From positions 1,199 to 65,198 of the forward strand of contig JAZURV010000013.1 of NCBI GenBank assembly GCA_045606425.1: DNA of 64,000 nucleotides, written 5' to 3'. The stretch's first letter is position 1. Every line of letters begins with the position of its first letter. Below, piece after piece: positions 8,228 through 58,305 of this stretch. The notes under the pieces were generated by a model. That model did not search any database and had not been told where the DNA came from. It was given only the letters and a program-made list of their open reading frames with translations. The translations under genes and the position numbers were made by a program. The stretch is from Candidatus Enterousia sp. (GTDB taxonomy: Bacteria > Pseudomonadota > Alphaproteobacteria > Rs-D84).

Positions 8228-9508
8228 TTATAAAGGTAATACCACGCGAACTTTTAATCCACCCAGTTCACTGTTTTCCAAGAATATCTGTCCGCCATGA
8301 TTTTCAATGGCTGTTTTTGCGATGGATAATCCCAAACCAGTGCCACCGGTCAATTCGCTGCGCGATTCGTCCAGACGAACAAATGGTTGTAATGCCAACT
8401 CTTTTTTGTCATCAGGGATACCGATTCCGTCGTCTTCTATTATGACTGTCACAGATTCGTCAGAATCCGTTTCTGTGATTTTTAAAGTTTTCTTTGTAAA
8501 GCGCGCGGCGTTTTCAATGATGTTTGTGAATGCACTGGTCAGCGCATTTGGTCGTGCGTAAAATTGGACAGGTTCTTCTGGGAATTGTAAAACAATGTTC
8601 TTTTTTGGGGCTGCGTCGCGGGCAATCCGTGTCAGCATAGCCGGTAATTCTACGGCCTGTTCTATCTCTGGAGTTTCGCCACGGGCAAACGCCAGATACC
8701 CATTTACCATTTCGCTCATTCTGTCGATTTCGTGTAATAAATCCTGTTTGTCGGCAGAATCAGTTTCAATTGCCAGGCGCATGCGCGTCAATGGGGTTTT
8801 TAAATCGTGGCCCACAGCGTTTAACATGTCTGTCCTGGTTTTGTTGTACCGATTCAGCCGCTCTTTCATTGTTATCATGGCGTGCGCTGCTTCGCGGATT
8901 TCCATTGAACCGCTGGGTTGAAATCCGGGAACATCCATACCGCGTCCGAATTTGTTTGCTGCCTTTGCAATACGGCGAATACTGCGCGTGTGCGCGATAA
9001 CAAACGGGGTTATTAAAACGGATACAATCAGTATTGCGCCCAACACCCATAACAAGAAAACTTCTGTGCTGGTGGAATATATACGGTGCATACTGGTTGC
9101 GAAAGTAGCAATTTTGTTATCCTGGGTTGGAACATCGATAAATATTAAACGTTTTCCGCGGTCAATGTAAACAGCAGTTGGTTTTTCTATGCGTTGTTGT
9201 AATTCTGATACCAACGGGCCTGCTTCGCGTGATTTGTTGTCGTTTTCGCGTGGTCTGTTTAATTTTTCATTTATTGAAACATTTATACCAATGTCGTTTG
9301 CCAGCATTTTCACAGCATTGGTATTGCCTGCGTCCATAAAGTGCACCATTGTCGCAACTTCGCCTGCCAATGTGCGCGCCAGCGTTTCGTGTACTTTTTT
9401 CCAATGGTTGCCAAAGAAAGAATTTGCGACAATCAGTAATGCCACCACCATCGGCACCAGTACCATCAAAATTGTACGCCCCAGAAAACTGCGCGGTATA
9501 ATTCTCAT
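8228..9508 (-). CDS. Membrane sensor histidine kinase (EnvZ/PhoR-like)
   Basis: Two TM segments, an H-box (GHDLKTPLTRMRL), an N-box (ENAARFT), G1 (DDGIGIP) and G2 (GGTGLGLSI). Confidence 0.85.
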   Translation of the reverse strand: MRIIPRSFLGRTILMVLVPMVVALLIVANSFFGNHWKKVHETLARTLAGEVATMVHFMDAGNTNAVKMLANDIGINVSINEKLNRPRENDNKSREAGPLVSELQQRIEKPTAVYIDRGKRLIFIDVPTQDNKIATFATSMHRIYSTSTEVFLLWVLGAILIVSVLITPFVIAHTRSIRRIAKAANKFGRGMDVPGFQPSGSMEIREAAHAMITMKERLNRYNKTRTDMLNAVGHDLKTPLTRMRLAIETDSADKQDLLHEIDRMSEMVNGYLAFARGETPEIEQAVELPAMLTRIARDAAPKKNIVLQFPEEPVQFYARPNALTSAFTNIIENAARFTKKTLKITETDSDESVTVIIEDDGIGIPDDKKELALQPFVRLDESRSELTGGTGLGLSIAKTAIENHGGQIFLENSELGGLKVRVVLPL

Positions 9509-9520
9509 TTAACATCCTTT

Positions 9521-10153
9521 TTAGTGTTTGTTTGTGACAATTTTATATCCCATGCCACGAACAGTTATAATATCTGTATCTGATAATACACCATTTATTT
9601 TATTGCGCAAGCGTTTTGCAACCATCGGCGTTGCACGAACAATGTTTCCAATTGGATTGGTTAGTTGCTGTAATAATTTTTTTTCTTCCAAAGACAGCGA
9701 AAGCATTTTGTTCGCCCCACTTTCAGATTTTATGAAAAATTCGTCATCTGCGAATAATAAACCAAACGAACTGTTTTGCGGGGTGCGCCGTGTGTCTTTT
9801 GTTATATTATTCAGGCGCAATACCAATTCTTTTAATTGAAAAGGTTTTGCCATATAATCATTTGCACCACCAGATAATCCGTCAATGGCGTTGTCTGGAC
9901 CGGACAGCGCGGTCAGCATTATAACAGGCGTTTCGTTCCCGTTTAATCGCAATTGTTTCAGAAAACTTAGCCCGTCCATGCCGTCCATCATGCGGTCCAA
10001 AACCATTGCGTCAACATAAATACGGGACAAAATCTGGTTTGCTTCATCGGCAGATTGGGCAGTTATAACCCCAAAACCATTTTGACGCAATCCGTTGGCC
10101 AAACTGGTTCGTAAAATTTTGTCATCGTCAACAACCAGAATATTCTTAGTCAT
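9521..10153 (-). CDS. OmpR-family response regulator (compact)
   Basis: Receiver domain (ILVVDDD, LDRMMDGMDG, DYMAKPF) plus a short winged-helix C-terminus ending in VRGMGYKIV. It sits directly upstream of the kinase. Confidence 0.8.
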   Translation of the reverse strand: MTKNILVVDDDKILRTSLANGLRQNGFGVITAQSADEANQILSRIYVDAMVLDRMMDGMDGLSFLKQLRLNGNETPVIMLTALSGPDNAIDGLSGGANDYMAKPFQLKELVLRLNNITKDTRRTPQNSSFGLLFADDEFFIKSESGANKMLSLSLEEKKLLQQLTNPIGNIVRATPMVAKRLRNKINGVLSDTDIITVRGMGYKIVTNKH

Positions 10154-10172
10154 TCTTGTTATGGTTTTGGTA

Positions 10173-11114
10173 TTATTTATCCAATGCTTCGACTGCGTAT
10201 TCGCCTGGTTTTATGGCGCGACCAGGATTGTCCAGATTTTCGCCGTTTTTATATGTCGATGCACGGAATTTTGCCCCGTTTGTTGTGAATTCTGTTTTGA
10301 ATACCAGGTATCCGTTTGCGCCACCAGATGCAGGTCCCTGCATGCCGATTGAATAATATGCGCCAACCAGACCGTAATCCAGGTCAATATAATCAACACT
10401 AAGCAGTAAAGATATGTTTGACATGCCATCACTGGTCAGATTGCAGGCAAATTCGCGGTTCATCAGTGTTGCCTGGGAATTGTTCGGTACCGATATATCC
10501 ATAATTGTTGGTTCGCATGTCCGTTGAATGCCGTTTACCAGAAATTCGTAAGTCATTGTCACTGTGGCGCGCGACAGACCTGTCGACAGGTTGACCTGGG
10601 ATATTGTGGCCTTTGGAATTTTTACCAGCGCATTCGCTATGCCAGAACGAACTGGGAACGAAATGCCAGATTGTAAACAACTGCGCGAAAATGGGTCTGC
10701 TTCGCAAATATACAGGCGCGAATGTGCGTTTGTCATAAACATGTTGGCCAAACTGTTAAATAAAAATGTGCGCGTTATACGATTATTCAGGCGCGTGCAG
10801 TTAAAATCACGACAAATTACCGTGGGGCGTTCTGTAAATTGAACCCCAGGATTCATATCGTATTCTTCACTGCGTGTTTGATATATTACTTCATCATAAT
10901 CGACACTGTCGTCCATATTCATGAATTCTGATTCTGGGATAAAATTCGGGTCGTCAGGATACGCATAATAGGAACGGACTGGAACCTCTGTATAAACAGT
11001 CTGGGTTTCTTCGAATGTATAATTGTCATAGGAATAGTCGTCGTAATCCTGGGCAAAACAGGTGCTGTGCGCGCCAAATGCCAACAATAAAGCCAAAAAT
11101 GCAGATTTTTTCAT
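10173..11114 (-). CDS. Secreted hypothetical protein (signal peptide, acidic Tyr/Asp-rich N-terminus)
   Basis: MKKSAFLALLLAFGAHSTCFA signal peptide. 313 aa, ending 20 nt upstream of the response regulator start. I recognised no domain. Confidence 0.55.
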   Translation of the reverse strand: MKKSAFLALLLAFGAHSTCFAQDYDDYSYDNYTFEETQTVYTEVPVRSYYAYPDDPNFIPESEFMNMDDSVDYDEVIYQTRSEEYDMNPGVQFTERPTVICRDFNCTRLNNRITRTFLFNSLANMFMTNAHSRLYICEADPFSRSCLQSGISFPVRSGIANALVKIPKATISQVNLSTGLSRATVTMTYEFLVNGIQRTCEPTIMDISVPNNSQATLMNREFACNLTSDGMSNISLLLSVDYIDLDYGLVGAYYSIGMQGPASGGANGYLVFKTEFTTNGAKFRASTYKNGENLDNPGRAIKPGEYAVEALDK

Positions 11115-11264
11115 AGGTTTAACCTTTTTTCTCTCGTATACTTTATAAAATGATAGAATATTTTTATGGTCTGTGTCAAAGCAAAAATATTTTTATTGAA
11201 AATAATAACAAAATTGTTCTATAAATATATCACAGTGATAAAATTTGGACCAAGGTGATATAAA

Positions 11265-11924
11265 ATGGTAGATGTTATTATTACAGGTGATTCTGGTAAA
11301 TTGCACGCGGTTTATCATAAATCAGATATCGAAGCCGCACCCCTGGCGGTCGTTTTGTCTGGGTGTCCGCGTCAGAAATGTCATATGAATGACAGAATAT
11401 CCTATGCGATGTTTCGCGCGTTTATGGATATTGGTTTTTCTGTGGTGCGTTTTAATTATCGTGGGGTCAACGATTCCGAAGGTTCAATCGGAACAACATC
11501 TGAAAATATGTTGGATATCGCGACAGTTATCGATTGGATTCAGAACAAAAACGAAGACAGCGATAAAATTTGGCTGGCGGGGAATCAGTTGGGTGCCTGG
11601 TATGTATTACAGGCCATGATGCGTCGGCCAGAAATTTCTGGATTTGCGCTGGTGTCACCTGACCCGTCTGTGTCTGATTTTGGTTTTTTGTCGCCACGCC
11701 CAAATCGCGGGCTGTTGTTGCAGGGGGCAAATGAAGGTGATGAAGCAACATCTTTTGGGGTACATTTAACCCAAATACTGAAAAAACAGGCGCAAATAGA
11801 TTTGGAAACAATTCGTGTTAAGAATGCAGATGCTAATTATTCTGCACCTGCGGATTTGCGTCAAATGTATAATGACCTAAAGGCCTATGTCGGGCGTGAA
11901 AATTCTGATAGCAAGTTGTTATAG
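11265..11924 (+). CDS. Alpha/beta-fold hydrolase (COG2945-like)
   Basis: 219 aa. The pattern HP.......M......A.......G....RFN.RGV..S.G and the short alpha/beta hydrolase length fit this family. The assignment is from memory of the family. Confidence 0.55.
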
Positions 11925-11926
11925 TT

Positions 11927-12919
11927 ATGATGGGTGAAAATAAAAGATTTTTGGATCCAAACATTCCAGATGAAATGGCGAACAGTATTCGTCCAAAGAA
12001 TCTGAATGATTTTATCGGACACGAAGCGTTAAAACAAAACCTGTCTGTGTTTGTGTCTGCGGCGCGTGGTCGTGGCGAAGCGATGGACCATGTTTTGTTG
12101 TATGGTCCCCCGGGATTGGGCAAAACAACATTGGCACATATCGTTGCAAATGAATTGGGTACGAATTTTCGTGCCACATCGGCACCTATGTTGACCAAGC
12201 AAGGTGATTTAGCAGCAATTTTGACTGCGCTGGAACCGATGGATGTTTTGTTTATAGATGAAATCCACCGTTTGCCAACAGCAATTGAAGAAGTCCTTTA
12301 TTCTGCGATGGAAGATTTCAAATTGGATATTATGCTGGGCGAAGGTCCAACGGCGAAATCTGTGCGTATAGATTTGCCCCCGTTCACATTAGTTGGTGCG
12401 ACAACCCGTACCGGTTTATTGTCGAATCCGTTGCGTGACAGATTTGGAATCGATTTAAGATTGTCTTTTTATTCTGTGGCAGATTTAGCAAAGATAATAA
12501 TGCGTTCTGCACAAATTTTGGGAACTAATATAGACGAAAATGGTGCCACTTTGTTGGCGGCATCTTCGCGTGGTACACCGCGTATTGCGAATCGGTTGTT
12601 GAAACGCGCGCGTGATTTTGCTGCGGCGGTTGGTAAAGATTTTATAGACGCCGATACAATAAAAACTACACTTTTTCAATTGCACATAGATGGCGCGGGA
12701 TTGGACGAAATTGACCGTGAATATATAAACGCGATAATTCAACATTATGCCGGCGGTCCGGTCGGAATTGACAATTTAGCGGCGGCACTCAGCGAACCTG
12801 CCGATACAATCGAAGATGTTATTGAACCATATTTGATGCAGTTGGGATTTATTCAGCGGACGCCACGCGGTCGTATTGTCACGGATGCCGGATACAGACA
12901 CCTGGGTTTAGAAAAATGA
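11927..12919 (+). CDS. ruvB: Holliday junction branch migration helicase RuvB
   Basis: RP..L..FIGHE, Walker A (GPPGLGKTT), Walker B (FIDEIHRL), the TLVGATTR sensor and [11 protein letters not shown]. Confidence 0.96.
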
Positions 12920-15461: not shown

Positions 15462-15802
15462 AATGTGCCAGGCGTTCAATAAGCCGGATTCTGTACAGCC
15501 AAAATCGCGTCCAAAGACCCAATAAAGGTTGCAAGCATAATTAATCTGCAAATTGCGTTGCCGCAAAATGTCAAGCCCTCTACCCAGTTCCGTTAGCGAC
15601 AGGGACGGTCTTGGAACCCTTTTTGAGGTTGCTGCACATAGAGATTGCCCGTTTCACCGTAACTAAATACGCTCGTCTCTGCTGCTCTAATCATCGGGTT
15701 ACCCCGTGTGGTCATTAGCCACTATGTTGTCCCAATGCAGTCCGGACTTTCCTCGGTATCACGACGCTGTGGTACCGCTATGCTTTTTCGCACCTGGCGT
15801 AC
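15462..15802 (-). ncRNA. rnpB: RNase P RNA, bacterial type A
   Basis: The minus strand carries the universally conserved GAGGAAAGTCCGGAC (P4 5' strand) and ACAGAATCCGGCTTAT (P4 3' strand). A P1 pairing of GCCAGGTG with CGCCTGGC closes the ends. About 340 nt. Confidence 0.9.
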
Positions 15803-32549: not shown

Positions 32550-32855
32550 TTATACTATATATGTAATATGTGGTTGCGGAATGTGTGGACCCCCATCTAA
32601 ACTTTTGCTGTATTTTTGTGCAGATTTAAGATTGTTTATAACATGGTAAAAAAATACATCTTCAAATATGATACTGGGTTTTTTTGAATAAATTTTCCAA
32701 AAATCATCAGTTTCGTCAATCAAAAATGAATAAACCGTTTGGGTCGCGGCATAGGTGTCCAAATCTTTGACACACAAAAGTTGTTCTATTTTTTCTTTTT
32801 TGCCAAAAACGAAAGCCCGCGCCAATTCTTGCTCTGTTATTTCATAAAGACTCAT
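32550..32855 (-). CDS. Hypothetical 101-aa protein downstream of structured RNA element A
   Basis: ORF with an ATG 30 nt after the element A terminator. No domain recognised. Confidence 0.4.
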   Translation of the reverse strand: MSLYEITEQELARAFVFGKKEKIEQLLCVKDLDTYAATQTVYSFLIDETDDFWKIYSKKPSIIFEDVFFYHVINNLKSAQKYSKSLDGGPHIPQPHITYIV

Positions 32856-32884: not shown

Positions 32885-33050
32885 AAAAAACAACCGCGAA
32901 AAAATTTTGCGGTTGGGGATAGACAACAATAAGACTAATTGCTCCGTTTATTCGATATATTCACGGACCCCCAACCATTGTTGGGTTTAATGTCCTTTTT
33001 AGACAAGTCTTAATAGGTGTCTAGCCAAAAGGAAACAACACGCTTCCTCG
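32885..33050 (-). ncRNA. Candidate structured leader or sRNA, copy A (paralog of 53797-53973)
   Basis: TTTACT-16 nt-TACAAT promoter (33084-33057, minus strand). P1 hairpin at 33048-33030. A hairpin at 32967-32943 presents the loop AAUAUAUCGAAUA. The CCCAAC/GTTGGG hairpin is followed by a duplicated CCCCAAC that overlaps an intrinsic terminator (32919-32885). Confidence 0.55.
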
Positions 33051-33141
33051 CTTTGAATTGTACCATATAATTCTAAAAAGTAAAGAACATATATTGGTAT
33101 TTTTTATGAAAACATACCGACAATATTTTTATTTTTACCCC

Positions 33142-33169
33142 CTTGAAACCATGTTTTTTATAACTATAT
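33142..33169 (+). promoter_or_regulatory. RpoH (sigma32)-type heat-shock promoter of dnaK
   Basis: CTTGAAA-15 nt-CTATATTT. The lon promoter at 59094-59121 has the same hexamers and spacing. This fits the alphaproteobacterial sigma32 consensus (CTTG ... CYTAT.T). Confidence 0.65.
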
Positions 33170-33215
33170 TTTGGCTAAGCGAGAAAAAACTTTACCAAAT
33201 CAAGGAGCAAACAAA

Positions 33216-53722: not shown

Positions 53723-53728
53723 ACAATA

Positions 53729-53757
53729 ACGGCGCAAATAATTGCGCCGTTTATTTT
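53729..53757 (+). terminator. Intrinsic terminator of the coiled-coil protein gene
   Basis: ACGGCGCAA-ATA-ATTGCGCCGT hairpin followed by TTATTTTT. Confidence 0.7.
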
Positions 53758-53796
53758 TCGCTTTTATTTATAAATATTTTTTGATAAAATAGGTTT

Positions 53797-53973
53797 GTCA
53801 GGAAGTGTTTTCCTGATGGGGTGTAACGACTCGTTTCGATGCGCGTCCATGATGACGTTAAAACTCCAACCATGTTGGGTTGGAGGGCTGCAAAATATAT
53901 CGAATATGCACACAATTTCGCATTGAATTGTCGTTAACCTCCAACCGCCTTTATATTATAAGTGCGGTTTTTT
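53797..53973 (+). ncRNA. Candidate structured leader or sRNA, copy B (paralog of 32885-33050)
   Basis: Extended -10 TGATAAAAT (53782-53790). P1 at 53798-53816. Hairpin CTCCAACC/GGTTGGAG at 53864-53885. A hairpin at 53889-53910 presents AAUAUAUCGAAUA. A second CTCCAACC at 53939-53946 overlaps the terminator (AACCGC at 53943-53948, GCGGTT at 53964-53969, then a T-run). Confidence 0.55.
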
Positions 53974-54053
53974 GATGTTGCACCAGGAAGGATTTGACAA
54001 CATGGGTTAGCCGTGTTTTATGCGTGGGTGCGGTTTGGAAAAGGAAGGGAACA

Positions 54054-55646
54054 ATGAAAAAAATTTTATCTTTTGTATTTGCATGCTTGGTTTTTACGTT
54101 ACCTGCATTTGCGTGCAATACAAATGAAATCGATGTTTTGGGGGATGGAACCCAATGTCAAACCGCACATTTTACACTTACCACCACATCAACGAACAGT
54201 TTTCAATTCAGTCTGTCTGCGGCGGGCACATTCTATGTCGATTGTGGAAACGGCGGAACATTAAGTGGCACAAACGCATCTGGGAAAATAATATCGCGCG
54301 GTTCTTCTACAACAAATACAACATACTCATGTTCTTGGGGAACCAGTACCGCACAAACAGTCCGATTCGGTGGGACGGCAACGGATTATAATACCAGTAC
54401 ATCTACGGCGGCAATCAGTTTTTATACCGACATCACAAATGCGCAAAAGGTTTATTCGATTACTGGTGATTTGGGTAAAATCTTTGGTGCCGTCCAAAGT
54501 AACCAGATACCAAGATTTCAACGAACATTTTACAGTTGCAGCAAATTAACCACCATCCCATCCGGATTATTTGATTCCGTTGATACATCCAACGCAACCG
54601 ATACAAGTTATATGTTTAACCAAACATTTCGCAATTGCAGCGGTTTAACCGCCATCTCAACCGGATTATTTGATTCCATTAATACATCCAACGCAACCCA
54701 TACAAGTTATATGTTTAGCTACACATTTTCCAATTGCAGCGGTTTAACCGCCATCCCAACCGGATTATTTGATTCCATTAATACATCCAACGCAACAAAT
54801 ACAAATTATATGTTTCAACGAACATTTTACAGTTGCAGCAAATTAACCACCATCCCAACCGGATTATTTGATTCCATTAATACATCCAATGCAACCAATA
54901 CCAGTTATATGTTTTACTACACATTTTACAATTGCAGTAATTTAACCGATATTCCATCTGGATTATTTAATTCCATTGATACATCCAACGCAACCAATAC
55001 AAGTGGTATGTTTCAATATACATTTTCCAATTGCAGCGGTTTAACCAGTATGCCGGCAACTTTGTTTAATTCAAATATCGGCATGGTAAATGGTGCCATT
55101 TATACCAATATGTTTTCCGACATGTTTTACAACTGTACCAACCTTGGTGGGTATATACCGTCAACAACTTTTCCATCCGGGATAACAACGGCATTAAACG
55201 CATCAATCGATGTTTTCCTTAACACAAAATTGGCAACAGAATGTCCGGCGGGGACAACACTATATGCAACATACACCCCGAACAGCAAGGTTGCATGTGA
55301 AGAAATCTCAGGGATAGACTGTTCATCGGGGTATTATCTGCCCGCAAATGTTAACGAATGCACACAGTGCCCGGCGAACAGCGCGTGTGTTGGTGGTACA
55401 TACAGTTTTAACGAAACAATGTCCCAGGGAATTGAACCATGTGCAACGGGATATTCGTCGGTTGCGGGCGCGTCGGTATGCACAGCAAACACAATAAATA
55501 TAACATGGGACAATGCGAACACTGCCGACATCACGGCAAATAACGCAGGTTCGGTCACATACGGTGGCGATATTCGTACCCCACGGAAAGCACAACATAT
55601 AAATGGAAAAATATTTGTCGGTTGGACTTTTAATAATCCAGAATAA
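54054..55646 (+). CDS. Secreted surface protein: BspA-type leucine-rich repeats, a Cys-rich module and a Listeria-Bacteroides-type repeat
   Basis: Signal peptide MKKILSFVFACLVFTLPAFA. At least five 33-aa repeats (F..CS.LT.IP.GLFDS..TSNAT.TS.MF). C-terminal CPAG...C...C..GYY......C..CPANS.C.GG. The protein ends in G..FVGW. Confidence 0.75.
   Translation: MKKILSFVFACLVFTLPAFACNTNEIDVLGDGTQCQTAHFTLTTTSTNSFQFSLSAAGTFYVDCGNGGTLSGTNASGKIISRGSSTTNTTYSCSWGTSTAQTVRFGGTATDYNTSTSTAAISFYTDITNAQKVYSITGDLGKIFGAVQSNQIPRFQRTFYSCSKLTTIPSGLFDSVDTSNATDTSYMFNQTFRNCSGLTAISTGLFDSINTSNATHTSYMFSYTFSNCSGLTAIPTGLFDSINTSNATNTNYMFQRTFYSCSKLTTIPTGLFDSINTSNATNTSYMFYYTFYNCSNLTDIPSGLFNSIDTSNATNTSGMFQYTFSNCSGLTSMPATLFNSNIGMVNGAIYTNMFSDMFYNCTNLGGYIPSTTFPSGITTALNASIDVFLNTKLATECPAGTTLYATYTPNSKVACEEISGIDCSSGYYLPANVNECTQCPANSACVGGTYSFNETMSQGIEPCATGYSSVAGASVCTANTINITWDNANTADITANNAGSVTYGGDIRTPRKAQHINGKIFVGWTFNNPE
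54519..55060 (+). repeat. In-frame 99-bp tandem repeats (about 5.5 copies) encoding the LRR units
   Basis: The unit CAACGAACATTTTACAGTTGCAGCAAATTAACCACCATCCCA... recurs with a 99-nt period. 54519 and 54816 are near-identical. Confidence 0.85.
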
Positions 55647-57938: not shown

Positions 57939-57953
57939 TTATAACTTAAAAAC

Positions 57954-57982
57954 TTGCAATTTCCAGTATGAATATTTATAAT
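57954..57982 (+). promoter_or_regulatory. Sigma70-like promoter of ssrA
   Basis: TTGCAA-17 nt-TATAAT. Confidence 0.6.
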
Positions 57983-57989
57983 GTGTTTG

Positions 57990-58305
57990 CTGTGTATAAC
58001 AGTGATGATTCTGAATTCGTTGCGGAATAATCGTTTTGGACTGGGGGGCGGTACCCCACAGCTCCACCACTTTATTCACGGGGCTGACATAGTTTCGACA
58101 GGCGAAGTAAAGGCAAATCGATTGAATCCGGGTTGTTCCGTTATAAACAAACTAAAAACTGAATGGCGATAGAATCGCTGCGAACGATAATGTTCGCTTT
58201 GCAATGGCTGCCTAATATGGCATTGGAATATGTTGGCAATTGTTGATGTATTCCGTTTAGCTTTTGCGGGGTCTGTCGGGTACCTGGCACCAGAAACCCG
58301 GCGTT
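57990..58305 (+). ncRNA. ssrA: tmRNA, circularly permuted two-piece (alphaproteobacterial) form
   Basis: The acceptor piece ends in ...CTGGGGGGCGGTACCCCACAGCTCCACCA (CCA at 58067-58069). Ten nt later the coding piece starts GGGGCTGACATAGTTTCGACAGG (58080). GGGGCUG pairs with CAGCUCC and includes the G3:U pair. The tag ORF GCG AAC GAT AAT GTT CGC TTT GCA ATG GCT GCC TAA (58180-58215) encodes ANDNVRFAMAA. The outer boundaries are approximate. Confidence 0.88.

Follow-up and report, generated by a model that had tools for sequence, protein, structure and literature searches.

We analyzed a 64,000-nt stretch of DNA from Candidatus Enterousia sp. (contig JAZURV010000013.1; hereafter, the window) that contains two copies of a structured RNA element. 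Copy A (53797-53973, plus strand) corresponds to an RNA of roughly 175 bases, with its own promoter on the 5' side and the gene for a surface protein on the 3' side. Copy B (33049-32885) is on the minus strand. The element is probably a promoter-proximal transcription attenuator that acts in cis, as a riboswitch-like leader RNA. It belongs to a large and uncatalogued family in small-genome gut Alphaproteobacteria, and comparisons across this family support two mutually exclusive folds, one with a terminator and one with an antiterminator, that are both under selection. It is best described as a default-off attenuator in which a three-segment switch is reinforced by a hypervariable clamp. From the anatomy of the sequence, we infer that the element switches in vivo and that it controls the downstream gene.

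Structure of the element

A preliminary description of copy A, made from the sequence alone, listed a terminator for the upstream gene, a promoter, several hairpins, and an octamer that occurs twice. All of these features are present in the sequence. The upstream gene's terminator (53728-53751 in our terminator scan) is followed by an extended -10 box (TGATAAAAT, 53782-53790), and the predicted transcription start is at about 53797. Folded alone as RNA, copy A has a minimum free energy (MFE) of -64.7 kcal/mol (z = -5.66) and copy B has -54.6 kcal/mol (z = -5.21); for each copy, 0 of 200 shuffles were as good. The two MFE structures have the same architecture, in agreement with the earlier proposal that copy B is a paralog with compensatory changes. 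In this architecture, a hairpin (P1) precedes a long-range helix in three parts (a GGGG:CCUC base, P2a, and P2b), which closes a four-way junction. P3, P4 (CUCCAACC/GGUUGGAG), and P5 lie within the junction, and a terminator hairpin and then a U-run follow it.

In copy A, P1 (53797-53817) is GUCAGGAA/UUCCUGAU in the RNA, or GTCAGGAA/TTCCTGAT in the DNA. It leads into the 5' strands of the clamp (53818-53842), namely GGGGU for the base of P2, UAACGAC for P2a (53824-53830), and UUCGAUGC for P2b (53835-53842). P3 is the hairpin GCGUC/GACGU (53843-53858), and the A-rich linker UAAAA (53859-53863) comes after it. P4 (53864-53885) corresponds to CTCCAACC-ATGTTG-GGTTGGAG in the DNA. Its 5' arm is segment 1, or seg1 (53864-53871), as assigned from the MFE fold and from pairing in the family. 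Seg2 (GGUUGGAGG, 53878-53886) is the strand that is common to P4 and to the antiterminator helix, as identified by covariation. P5 (53889-53910) has the stem UGCA/UGCA and the loop AAAUAUAUCGAAUA (AAATATATCGAATA in the DNA).

The 3' half of copy A begins with the alternative hairpin P6, whose arms CAAUU (53913-53917) and AAUUG (53926-53930), or CAATT and AATTG in the DNA, flank the 3' strand of P2b (GCAUUGAA, 53920-53927). The 3' strands of P2a (GUCGUUA, 53930-53936) and of the P2 base (ACCUC, 53937-53941) follow. The second CTCCAACC (53939-53946) overlaps the 5' arm of the intrinsic terminator, which is formed by AACCGC (53943-53948) and GCGGUU (53964-53969), with the U-run at 53968-53973. 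Seg3 (CCUCCAACCGC, 53938-53948) overlaps the terminator (53938-53973 in all) and shares CCAACC with its 5' arm. Apart from the segments, these helices were assigned from the MFE fold and the sequence. The preliminary description had TAACGAC pairing either distally with GTCGTTA or locally with CGTTA. The distal pairing is P2a; the local pairing is unsupported because CGTTA is part of P3 and of the linker after it. P2b, P3, and P6 are helices beyond those described earlier.

Homologs in gut Alphaproteobacteria

At the gathering threshold of Rfam 15, neither copy matched any family, and the window yielded just RNase P, a permuted alpha-type tmRNA, and two tRNAs. With E values up to 10, the two copies had chance matches only, and these were on the neighboring upstream terminator, off the element.

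We scanned one genome per species with a pattern that combined the P5 loop (with AATATATCGAATA fixed) and CCAACCGC, and obtained 44 loci. A covariance model of the family (R1) confirmed 30 of these, all from gut-derived alphaproteobacterial metagenome-assembled genomes (MAGs). Thirteen of the 30 carry the Candidatus Enterousia label, and several genomes have multiple copies. The other 14 loci, all from outside the Alphaproteobacteria, were not confirmed by R1 and were set aside as chance matches. A second pattern that left the loop free (CTCCAA..GGTTGGAG..CTCCAACCGC) gave at least 120 metagenome loci. R1 found at least 85 + 42 copies in metagenome loci, and the family total is at least 161 copies (including the two in the window), with at least 110 distinct sequences. 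Searching relatives with a covariance model had been proposed in the preliminary description, and it produced many homologs with covarying pairs.

The second pattern had no match in viral contigs, and we rejected a phage origin on this basis. The window leaders are most similar to the copies from gut alphaproteobacterial MAGs. Candidatus Enterousia belongs to the uncultured order Rs-D84, which consists of gut bacteria with genomes below about 1 Mb (PMC12306168). The resemblance of the leaders, the alpha-type two-piece tmRNA, and the GC content make it very likely that the window derives from this order.

Within the window, the covariance model gave 142 bits to copy A, 107 bits to copy B, and 19 bits to the next match, and there was no third copy. 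The 19-bit match (329-475) is merely a terminator between convergent genes, and the remaining weak matches were inside coding sequence. Also, CCAACCGC-N-GCGGTT occurs twice in the window, in the two copies only, versus 0.02 occurrences expected.

Promoters and downstream genes of the family

Members of the family have a consistent order: a promoter, a structured leader of 150-200 nt, a terminator and U-run, a ribosome-binding site, and a start codon. The -10 box matches TAnnnT in 94 of 99 copies and the extended form TGnTAnnnT in 59 of 99, and it ends 7 nt before position 1 of the model. In the aligned upstream DNA we saw a -35 box (TTGcA), a TG-extended -10 box (TAnAAT), and an A/T-rich stretch further upstream. 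Among copies with a callable downstream open reading frame, a same-strand start codon with a motif like the Shine-Dalgarno (SD) sequence lies a median of 25 nt after the end of the model, and within 40 nt in 78% of cases. Because the start codon is so near, there is no room for a separate promoter.

We examined 94 distinct downstream proteins. Twenty of them contain the Listeria-Bacteroides repeat (Flg_new), and about 18 have an XRE-type helix-turn-helix (HTH) domain; counted as genes, an immediately downstream, same-strand XRE-type HTH gene is found in about 18-20 of 94 members and behind neither window copy. A signal-peptide-like N-terminus was present in 51 of 91 downstream proteins. The type of protein tracks the subtype of the leader. 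In the short subtype (160 nt or less, without P3), 18 of 19 leaders precede small cytoplasmic proteins, mostly XRE-HTH, while in the long subtype (with P3), 50 of 72 precede proteins with signal peptides. Both window copies are of the long subtype.

The consensus for the P5 loop is GAAUA, a variable tetraloop or inserted hairpin, and (G/A)AAUAA, which makes an A-rich symmetric internal loop. We had considered the P5 loop as an invariant base-pairing seed and dropped this idea once the loop-free pattern showed that its center is variable or replaced by a hairpin. The P4 loop varies in length by at least 4-10 nt. The conserved unpaired positions are the A-rich linker before seg1, the G after seg2, the GAAUA/GAAUAA elements, and one C between P5 and P6.

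Covariation in both folds

For these comparisons, the terminator (T) fold comprised P1, the P2 base and P2a, P4, P5, and the terminator, with the P2b clamp tested separately. The antiterminator (A) fold comprised P1, a small GGG:CCY hairpin, the antiterminator helix, P5, and P6. We used two alignments: A2, with 28 sequences aligned by MAFFT without regard to structure, and A3, with 82 distinct metagenome copies aligned to the model. In A3, most of the switch segments were fixed by the search pattern.

Given A2, RNAalifold returned the A fold unprompted, and not the single-sequence MFE structure. Seg2 (GGUUGGAGG) pairs with CCUCCAACC, which overlaps the terminator, and the resulting antiterminator helix encloses P5 and a local hairpin, P6, which has the 3' strand of P2b as its loop. 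The A fold was 90.8% paired on A2, with a covariation score of 0.38. For the T fold, 89.1% of cells were paired, versus 76% in shuffles and 35-54% with slid partners, and the covariation score was 0.36, versus 0.14 and 0.04-0.11, respectively. Double changes were seen in 17 pairs of the T fold, 7 of them in P2. On A3, the T fold was 94.6% paired and the A fold was 96.8% paired.

The helix that is specific to the A fold was 99.6% paired on A2, with AU changed to GC in 2 sequences and GC changed to UA in 4, and was 99.6-100% paired across the alignments. The sole antiterminator pair that the search pattern left free was GC in 74 of the A3 sequences, UA in 5, and AU in 3, and was never unpaired. 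The second pair of P6 was UA in 15 sequences and AU in 11 in A2, and AU in 53 and UA in 28 in A3. As for the other helices, all 6 modelled pairs of P1 and all 3 pairs of the P5 stem covary, P4 is paired in 92-96% of cases, and the terminator pairs are kept in 93-94%. P1, P4, and P5 correspond to hairpins of the preliminary description, with P1 placed at 53797-53817.

P2b is hypervariable and could not be aligned by MAFFT, so we compared cognate and non-cognate duplexes without an alignment. Cognate P2b strands pair with -7.8 kcal/mol, versus -1.95 kcal/mol for non-cognate strands, and the cognate pairing is better in 93% of the copies (p = 3e-19).

The two window copies differ by a triple change in the switch: an A to G change in seg2 is matched by U to C changes in both seg1 and seg3. 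Because any change in seg2 needs compensation in two partners at once, the switch segments are almost frozen. The suggestion that GGTTGGAG pairs with either copy of CTCCAACC, to give exclusive terminator and antiterminator folds, is thus upheld by covariation across more than 100 homologs.

A model for the switch

We compared the energies of the two folds by imposing their helices as constraints on 109 sequences. The T fold is the unconstrained MFE structure in 84% of them. With the RNA cut just after seg3, which is the decision point, the A fold is 7.6 kcal/mol less stable. Termination would be the default: the T fold is more stable, P4 has already formed when seg3 is synthesized, and the clamp closes from P2b down to the GGGG:CCUC base. 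On the other side, the antiterminator helix has 9 perfect pairs and is intrinsically better than P4, whose last pair is unpaired in 28 of the 82 sequences in A3. So, weakening P4 or the clamp would tip the balance.

We propose that transcription would start about 7 nt after the extended -10 box and that the nascent RNA would fold in the order of its synthesis, with P1, P3, P4 (seg1 with seg2), and P5 forming in turn. The 3' strands of the clamp would then zip onto their 5' partners, to give P2b, P2a, and the GGGG:CCUC base. With the clamp closed, CAACCGC would be available for pairing with GCGGUU(G), and this hairpin and the U-run would make up the terminator. The T fold would release an RNA of roughly 175 nt and the downstream gene would be off; seg1 would act as an anti-antiterminator. 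In the A fold, seg2 would pair with seg3 and thereby remove the 5' arm of the terminator, P6 would replace P2b, and RNA polymerase would read through into the gene a few tens of bases downstream. Read-through would need an effector that either stabilizes the three-way junction of the antiterminator helix, P5, and P6, or else blocks P4 or P2. If the element is a cis-acting attenuator, then a small molecule and a protein or RNA are about equally likely as the effector, and a purely physical or kinetic switch is less so.

Comparison with the Brt RNAs of Bartonella

The nearest precedent that we found is a group of RNAs from Bartonella henselae. Brt1-9 are nine abundant RNAs of 194-203 nt, each of which directly precedes an XRE-HTH gene (trp) with low transcription; the authors who described them considered them to be specific to Bartonella (Tu et al. 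2016, PMC5387305). Deleting the 3' stem-loop of Brt1 led to high transcription of trp1, a reporter behind brt1 responded to heme, and neither temperature nor pH affected the transcription of trp under the control of Brt1 (reviewed in PMC8070961). The Brt RNAs are absent from Rfam. The novelty claimed in the preliminary description therefore holds as far as the element is uncatalogued in Rfam, but its design has a precedent.

We located Brt copies on five Bartonella plasmids by using the published primers, and seven chromosomal copies in B. henselae and B. tribocorum via homologs of Trp. The helix architecture of Brt is not defined in the Brt papers, and we derived it from 12 copies. Brt and our family share one design. 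Both are multi-copy alphaproteobacterial RNAs of about 200 nt, with a promoterless gene close behind them, at a distance of about 15 nt in Brt and of no more than a few tens of nt in general. The downstream gene of Brt encodes a small XRE-type HTH protein, as is the case for about a fifth of our family. The helices have the same order: P1, a G-run, P2a, CCY, P2b, and P3, followed by a seg1:seg2 hairpin (CCCGGA:UCCGGG), a P5 with an A-rich internal loop, the arms of a P6 equivalent (CUGA/UCAG) around the 3' strand of P2b, and the 3' strand of P2a. Seg3 of Brt (CUCCCGGAA) pairs perfectly with its seg2 (UUCCGGGAG). The MFE structure is T-like for a copy from B. grahamii and A-like for a copy from B. 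kosoyi. In Brt as in our family, the clamp is hypervariable and yet specific for its cognate strand: cognate pairing in Brt has -17.2 kcal/mol, versus -7.8 kcal/mol for non-cognate pairing, and the cognate strand is the best in 12 of 12 copies.

There are also clear differences. We found no detectable nucleotide similarity: R1 had no match on Brt loci, and blastn and nhmmer profiles, run in both directions between the family and Brt, gave chance-level matches only, none of them at the element. The sequences of the switch segments are unlike. In Brt, the 3' hairpin (GCGAGGGCGCUCGC) is 7 nt beyond seg3 and lacks a U-run, and the antiterminator helix does not overlap the hairpin, so the Brt switch may act less directly on termination. 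The 3' stem-loop of Brt is an attenuator by experiment, whereas in our family, nearly every member has a predicted terminator hairpin and U-run. And most members of our family, including the two in the window, do not precede HTH genes; most are followed by genes for secreted surface proteins.

The HTH proteins behind some Rs-D84 leaders are clearly homologous to Trp-like proteins from Bartonella, with 36-42% identity (BLASTP, E = 3e-18, over up to 115 amino acids). For the HTH protein associated with one leader (L069), a protein search whose E-value limit was too strict gave 5 matches. Overall, we lean slightly towards a common ancestry for the family and Brt, with convergence as the alternative.

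We noticed several other features of the Brt loci. In B. tribocorum (L172), half copies of Brt that run from the seg1:seg2 hairpin onwards, without P1-P3, lie between full Brt-trp units (9022-9136, 11812-11937, and 12787-12881). In B. henselae (L171), two trp genes (10001-10459 and 10846-11304; 152 amino acids each) have called starts inside Brt matches (9895-10094 and 10748-10939), and these N-termini are probably over-extended by about 35 residues. In Table S6 of PMC5387305, compared with two Brt loci (L045 and L046), "BrtProbe" has the same sense as the trp strand, and the sequence given as "asBrtProbe" is similar to the other strand. Unless the two names were exchanged, the entries must be targets rather than oligonucleotides. 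The orientation of the cloning primers in the same paper agrees with Brt being on the trp strand.

Comparison with riboswitches and other attenuators

The genes behind our family encode adhesin-like surface proteins and small regulators, with many copies per genome, and this set resembles the regulons of second-messenger riboswitches more than those of metabolic ones. Riboswitches with terminator/antiterminator platforms, such as the cyclic di-GMP-I and -II classes, are structured 5' leaders that precede genes for surface proteins, adhesins, and regulators, and not those of metabolism, and that occur many times in a genome. Our family is similar in that it has a structured leader supported by covariation, exclusive terminator and antiterminator helices, and a context of surface proteins and regulators. 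Both a conserved structured domain with covariation and an exclusive expression platform are typical of riboswitches. Unlike these riboswitch classes, the family has few conserved unpaired nucleotides and an extra, hypervariable, long-range clamp that reinforces the off state, and it has no match to any Rfam riboswitch even at E = 10.

In classical attenuators, such as the trp, his, and pyr leaders, the middle of three segments pairs with either neighbor, and the last segment shares bases with the terminator. The same 1:2, 2:3, and 3:4 logic is found in our family, but there is no conserved leader peptide, and the 1:2 hairpin is embedded in a four-way junction. In T-box leaders and the dual hairpins targeted by ANTAR proteins, terminator and antiterminator likewise compete, and the antiterminator is stabilized by a macromolecule, either tRNA or protein. 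However, we found no match to the T-box family in Rfam and no aminoacyl-tRNA synthetase or amino-acid genes among the downstream genes, and unlike in ANTAR targets, the loop of P4 is not a fixed hexaloop.

A more specific idea, which we offer tentatively and consider rather doubtful, is that the family, with Brt as a diverged branch, is an orphan class of "ON" riboswitch. The three-way junction of the antiterminator helix, P5 with its GAAUA/GAAUAA loop, and P6 would bind a small signal and switch on a regulon of adhesin-like surface proteins and HTH proteins in host-associated Alphaproteobacteria. Candidates for the signal would be a host-derived cue such as heme, or a second messenger. If this is correct, such control would extend to bacteria whose genomes are smaller than 1 Mb and have few other regulators.

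Alternative explanations

Several observations weigh against a cis-acting attenuator. Start site, termination, and read-through are predictions, and the organisms are uncultured. At full length, the T fold is favored over the A fold by 12.4 kcal/mol on average, and the A fold needs strong help. The switch segments are nearly invariant, and the direct evidence of covariation in the antiterminator helix comes from three positions. Few unpaired nucleotides are conserved, fewer than in typical metabolite aptamers. The terminators have long loops, of 11-15 nt in the window copies; because these loops exceed 8 nt, a simple terminator scan flagged neither of the window terminators. Finally, copy A has an 80-nt spacer and a promoter-like TTGACA before the surface-protein gene, which may not be entirely dependent on read-through.

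Instead of being the off state of an attenuator, the terminated species of roughly 175 nt could be a stand-alone small RNA that acts in trans, with read-through being incidental. The element's own strong promoter, its terminator and U-run, its several copies per genome, and termination as the thermodynamic default would all fit with this, and the Brt RNAs, which are among the most abundant transcripts of B. henselae, have also been proposed to act in trans (PMC5387305, PMC8070961). However, 78% of callable copies have an SD-preceded, same-strand start codon, without its own promoter, at most 40 nt away. Conservation and covariation are also seen in P6 and in the antiterminator helix, which would both be useless in the terminated fold. 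Nor is there a conserved single-stranded seed: the center of the P5 loop differs between copies, and in some it has given way to a hairpin. We consider a stand-alone small RNA to be unlikely; a dual-function RNA that is both a small RNA and an attenuator would be compatible with attenuation in cis. An intergenic repeat with hairpins but without regulatory function, such as a REP-like element or the remnant of a mobile element, seems very improbable. The family is indeed multi-copy, and the Brt loci are in a plastic region of the genome and on plasmids (PMC5387305 and the plasmid copies that we located), but the element has a fixed position and orientation relative to its promoter and the downstream gene, many compensatory changes, and no copy in viral contigs, and the window copies are amid housekeeping genes (dnaK and the gene for L25; obg and tmRNA).

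The leader might also be a physical or kinetic switch that has no dedicated ligand, either an RNA thermometer or a sensor of transcription speed or nucleoside triphosphates, perhaps with CCUCC masking the ribosome-binding site downstream. Because a large energy gap separates the two states of this bistable RNA, the outcome must depend on the order of co-transcriptional folding. CCUCC in seg1 and seg3 is complementary to ribosome-binding sites of the GGAGG type downstream. But the gut of a warm-blooded host is thermally stable, and shifting Brt1 from 27 to 37°C or from pH 6.6 to 7.2 left the transcription of trp unchanged (PMC8070961); we view a physical switch as quite improbable. Ribosome-mediated attenuation as in the trp operon, where a leader peptide over seg1 would choose between 1:2/3:4 and 2:3 pairing, has the right segment logic, and 53 of 110 copies have an AUG at the junction of P1 and UGGGG. 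Yet this AUG is missing from half of the copies (it is present in 48%), only 2 of 110 have an SD-like motif before it, the stop codons are scattered between 60 nt ahead of seg2 and about 100 nt beyond the start of seg2, and the encoded peptides would cross the hypervariable P2 sequence. We reject this mechanism as having almost no chance of being correct.

Implications

The hypothetical surface proteins of Rs-D84 are thought to mediate cell-cell contact (PMC12306168). One leader design in front of dozens of genes for surface proteins and HTH regulators would be a central device for controlling attachment. In a human pathogen, the Brt RNAs regulate the adhesin BadA and the formation of biofilms. 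Our analysis provides the first explicit structural model with two folds for the Brt RNAs, whose mechanism has been vague, and compensatory changes back the clamp. It also indicates that a Brt-like design is not confined to Bartonella. With at least 161 examples, covariation for both conformers, and a default-off logic, the family is a well-defined orphan class.

The two copies in the window and their surroundings

The gene downstream of copy A (54054-55646, plus strand) encodes a 530-amino-acid protein with a signal peptide and BspA-like/DUF285 repeats (DUF285, E = 8e-7). Its ATG is 80 nt past the U-run, compared with the family's median of 25 nt from the end of the model to the start codon. 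The spacer (53974-54053) holds a hairpin (AUGUUG..CAACAU) and the weak promoter-like TTGACA (53994-53999), as well as GTGCGGTTTGG (54028-54038), which resembles the 3' arm of the terminator (GTGCGGTTTTTT, 53963-53974). A duplication may have left this repeat behind, or it may serve as a second point of control. A simple promoter scan missed the promoter of copy A, which has a weak -35 box.

Copy B has its promoter at 33057-33065 on the minus strand, with an extended -10 box (TGGTACAAT) and the -35 box TTTACT, from the sequence and the promoter scan. Its 5' half (32991-33049) contains P1 (33049-33042 with 33036-33029), a GG (33026-33025), the 5' strands of P2a (UAGACA, 33023-33018) and P2b (UAAGACU, 33012-33006), and P3 (33005-33001 with 32995-32991). 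P4 (32968-32985), which is the triple-compensated variant of P4 in copy A by fold and covariation, consists of seg1 (CCCAAC, 32985-32980) and seg2 (GGUUGGGGG, 32976-32968). P5 (32943-32967) is UCCGU/ACGGA with the loop GAAUAUAUCGAAUAA. The 3' half (32885-32941) contains P6 (CAAU, 32941-32938, with AUUG, 32930-32927), the 3' strands of P2b (AGUCUUA, 32936-32930) and P2a (UGUCUA, 32925-32920), and seg3 (CCCCAACCGC, 32918-32909). It ends with the terminator CAACCGC/GCGGUUG (32915-32909 with 32897-32891) and the U-run (32890-32885). The helices were again taken from the MFE fold and the sequence.

The ATG of the gene behind copy B (32550-32855, minus strand) is 29 nt past the U-run. This gene encodes a 101-amino-acid protein that has no match in Pfam. 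It has weak similarity (26% identity, E = 1e-4) to the protein behind L040, the leader that is most similar to copy B and that has the same GGUUGGGGG variant, which suggests a small protein family that is tied to this leader subtype. Exact-protein look-ups for two proteins of the window returned no match. Copy B neighbors dnaK and the gene for L25, while obg and tmRNA are near copy A. The promoters of copy B and dnaK are divergent and within about 120 bp, with promoter-like sites on both strands (33050-33215).

The window encodes a two-piece (permuted) alpha-type tmRNA at 57950-58305 on the plus strand (158 bits for alpha_tmRNA and 120 bits for tmRNA_permuted). This alpha-type tmRNA and the GC content of 41% place the window in the Alphaproteobacteria. 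There is also a class A RNase P RNA at 15464-15797 on the minus strand (171 bits), in which the part corresponding to the middle of the model is shortened and 22 nt are inserted close to the 3' end.

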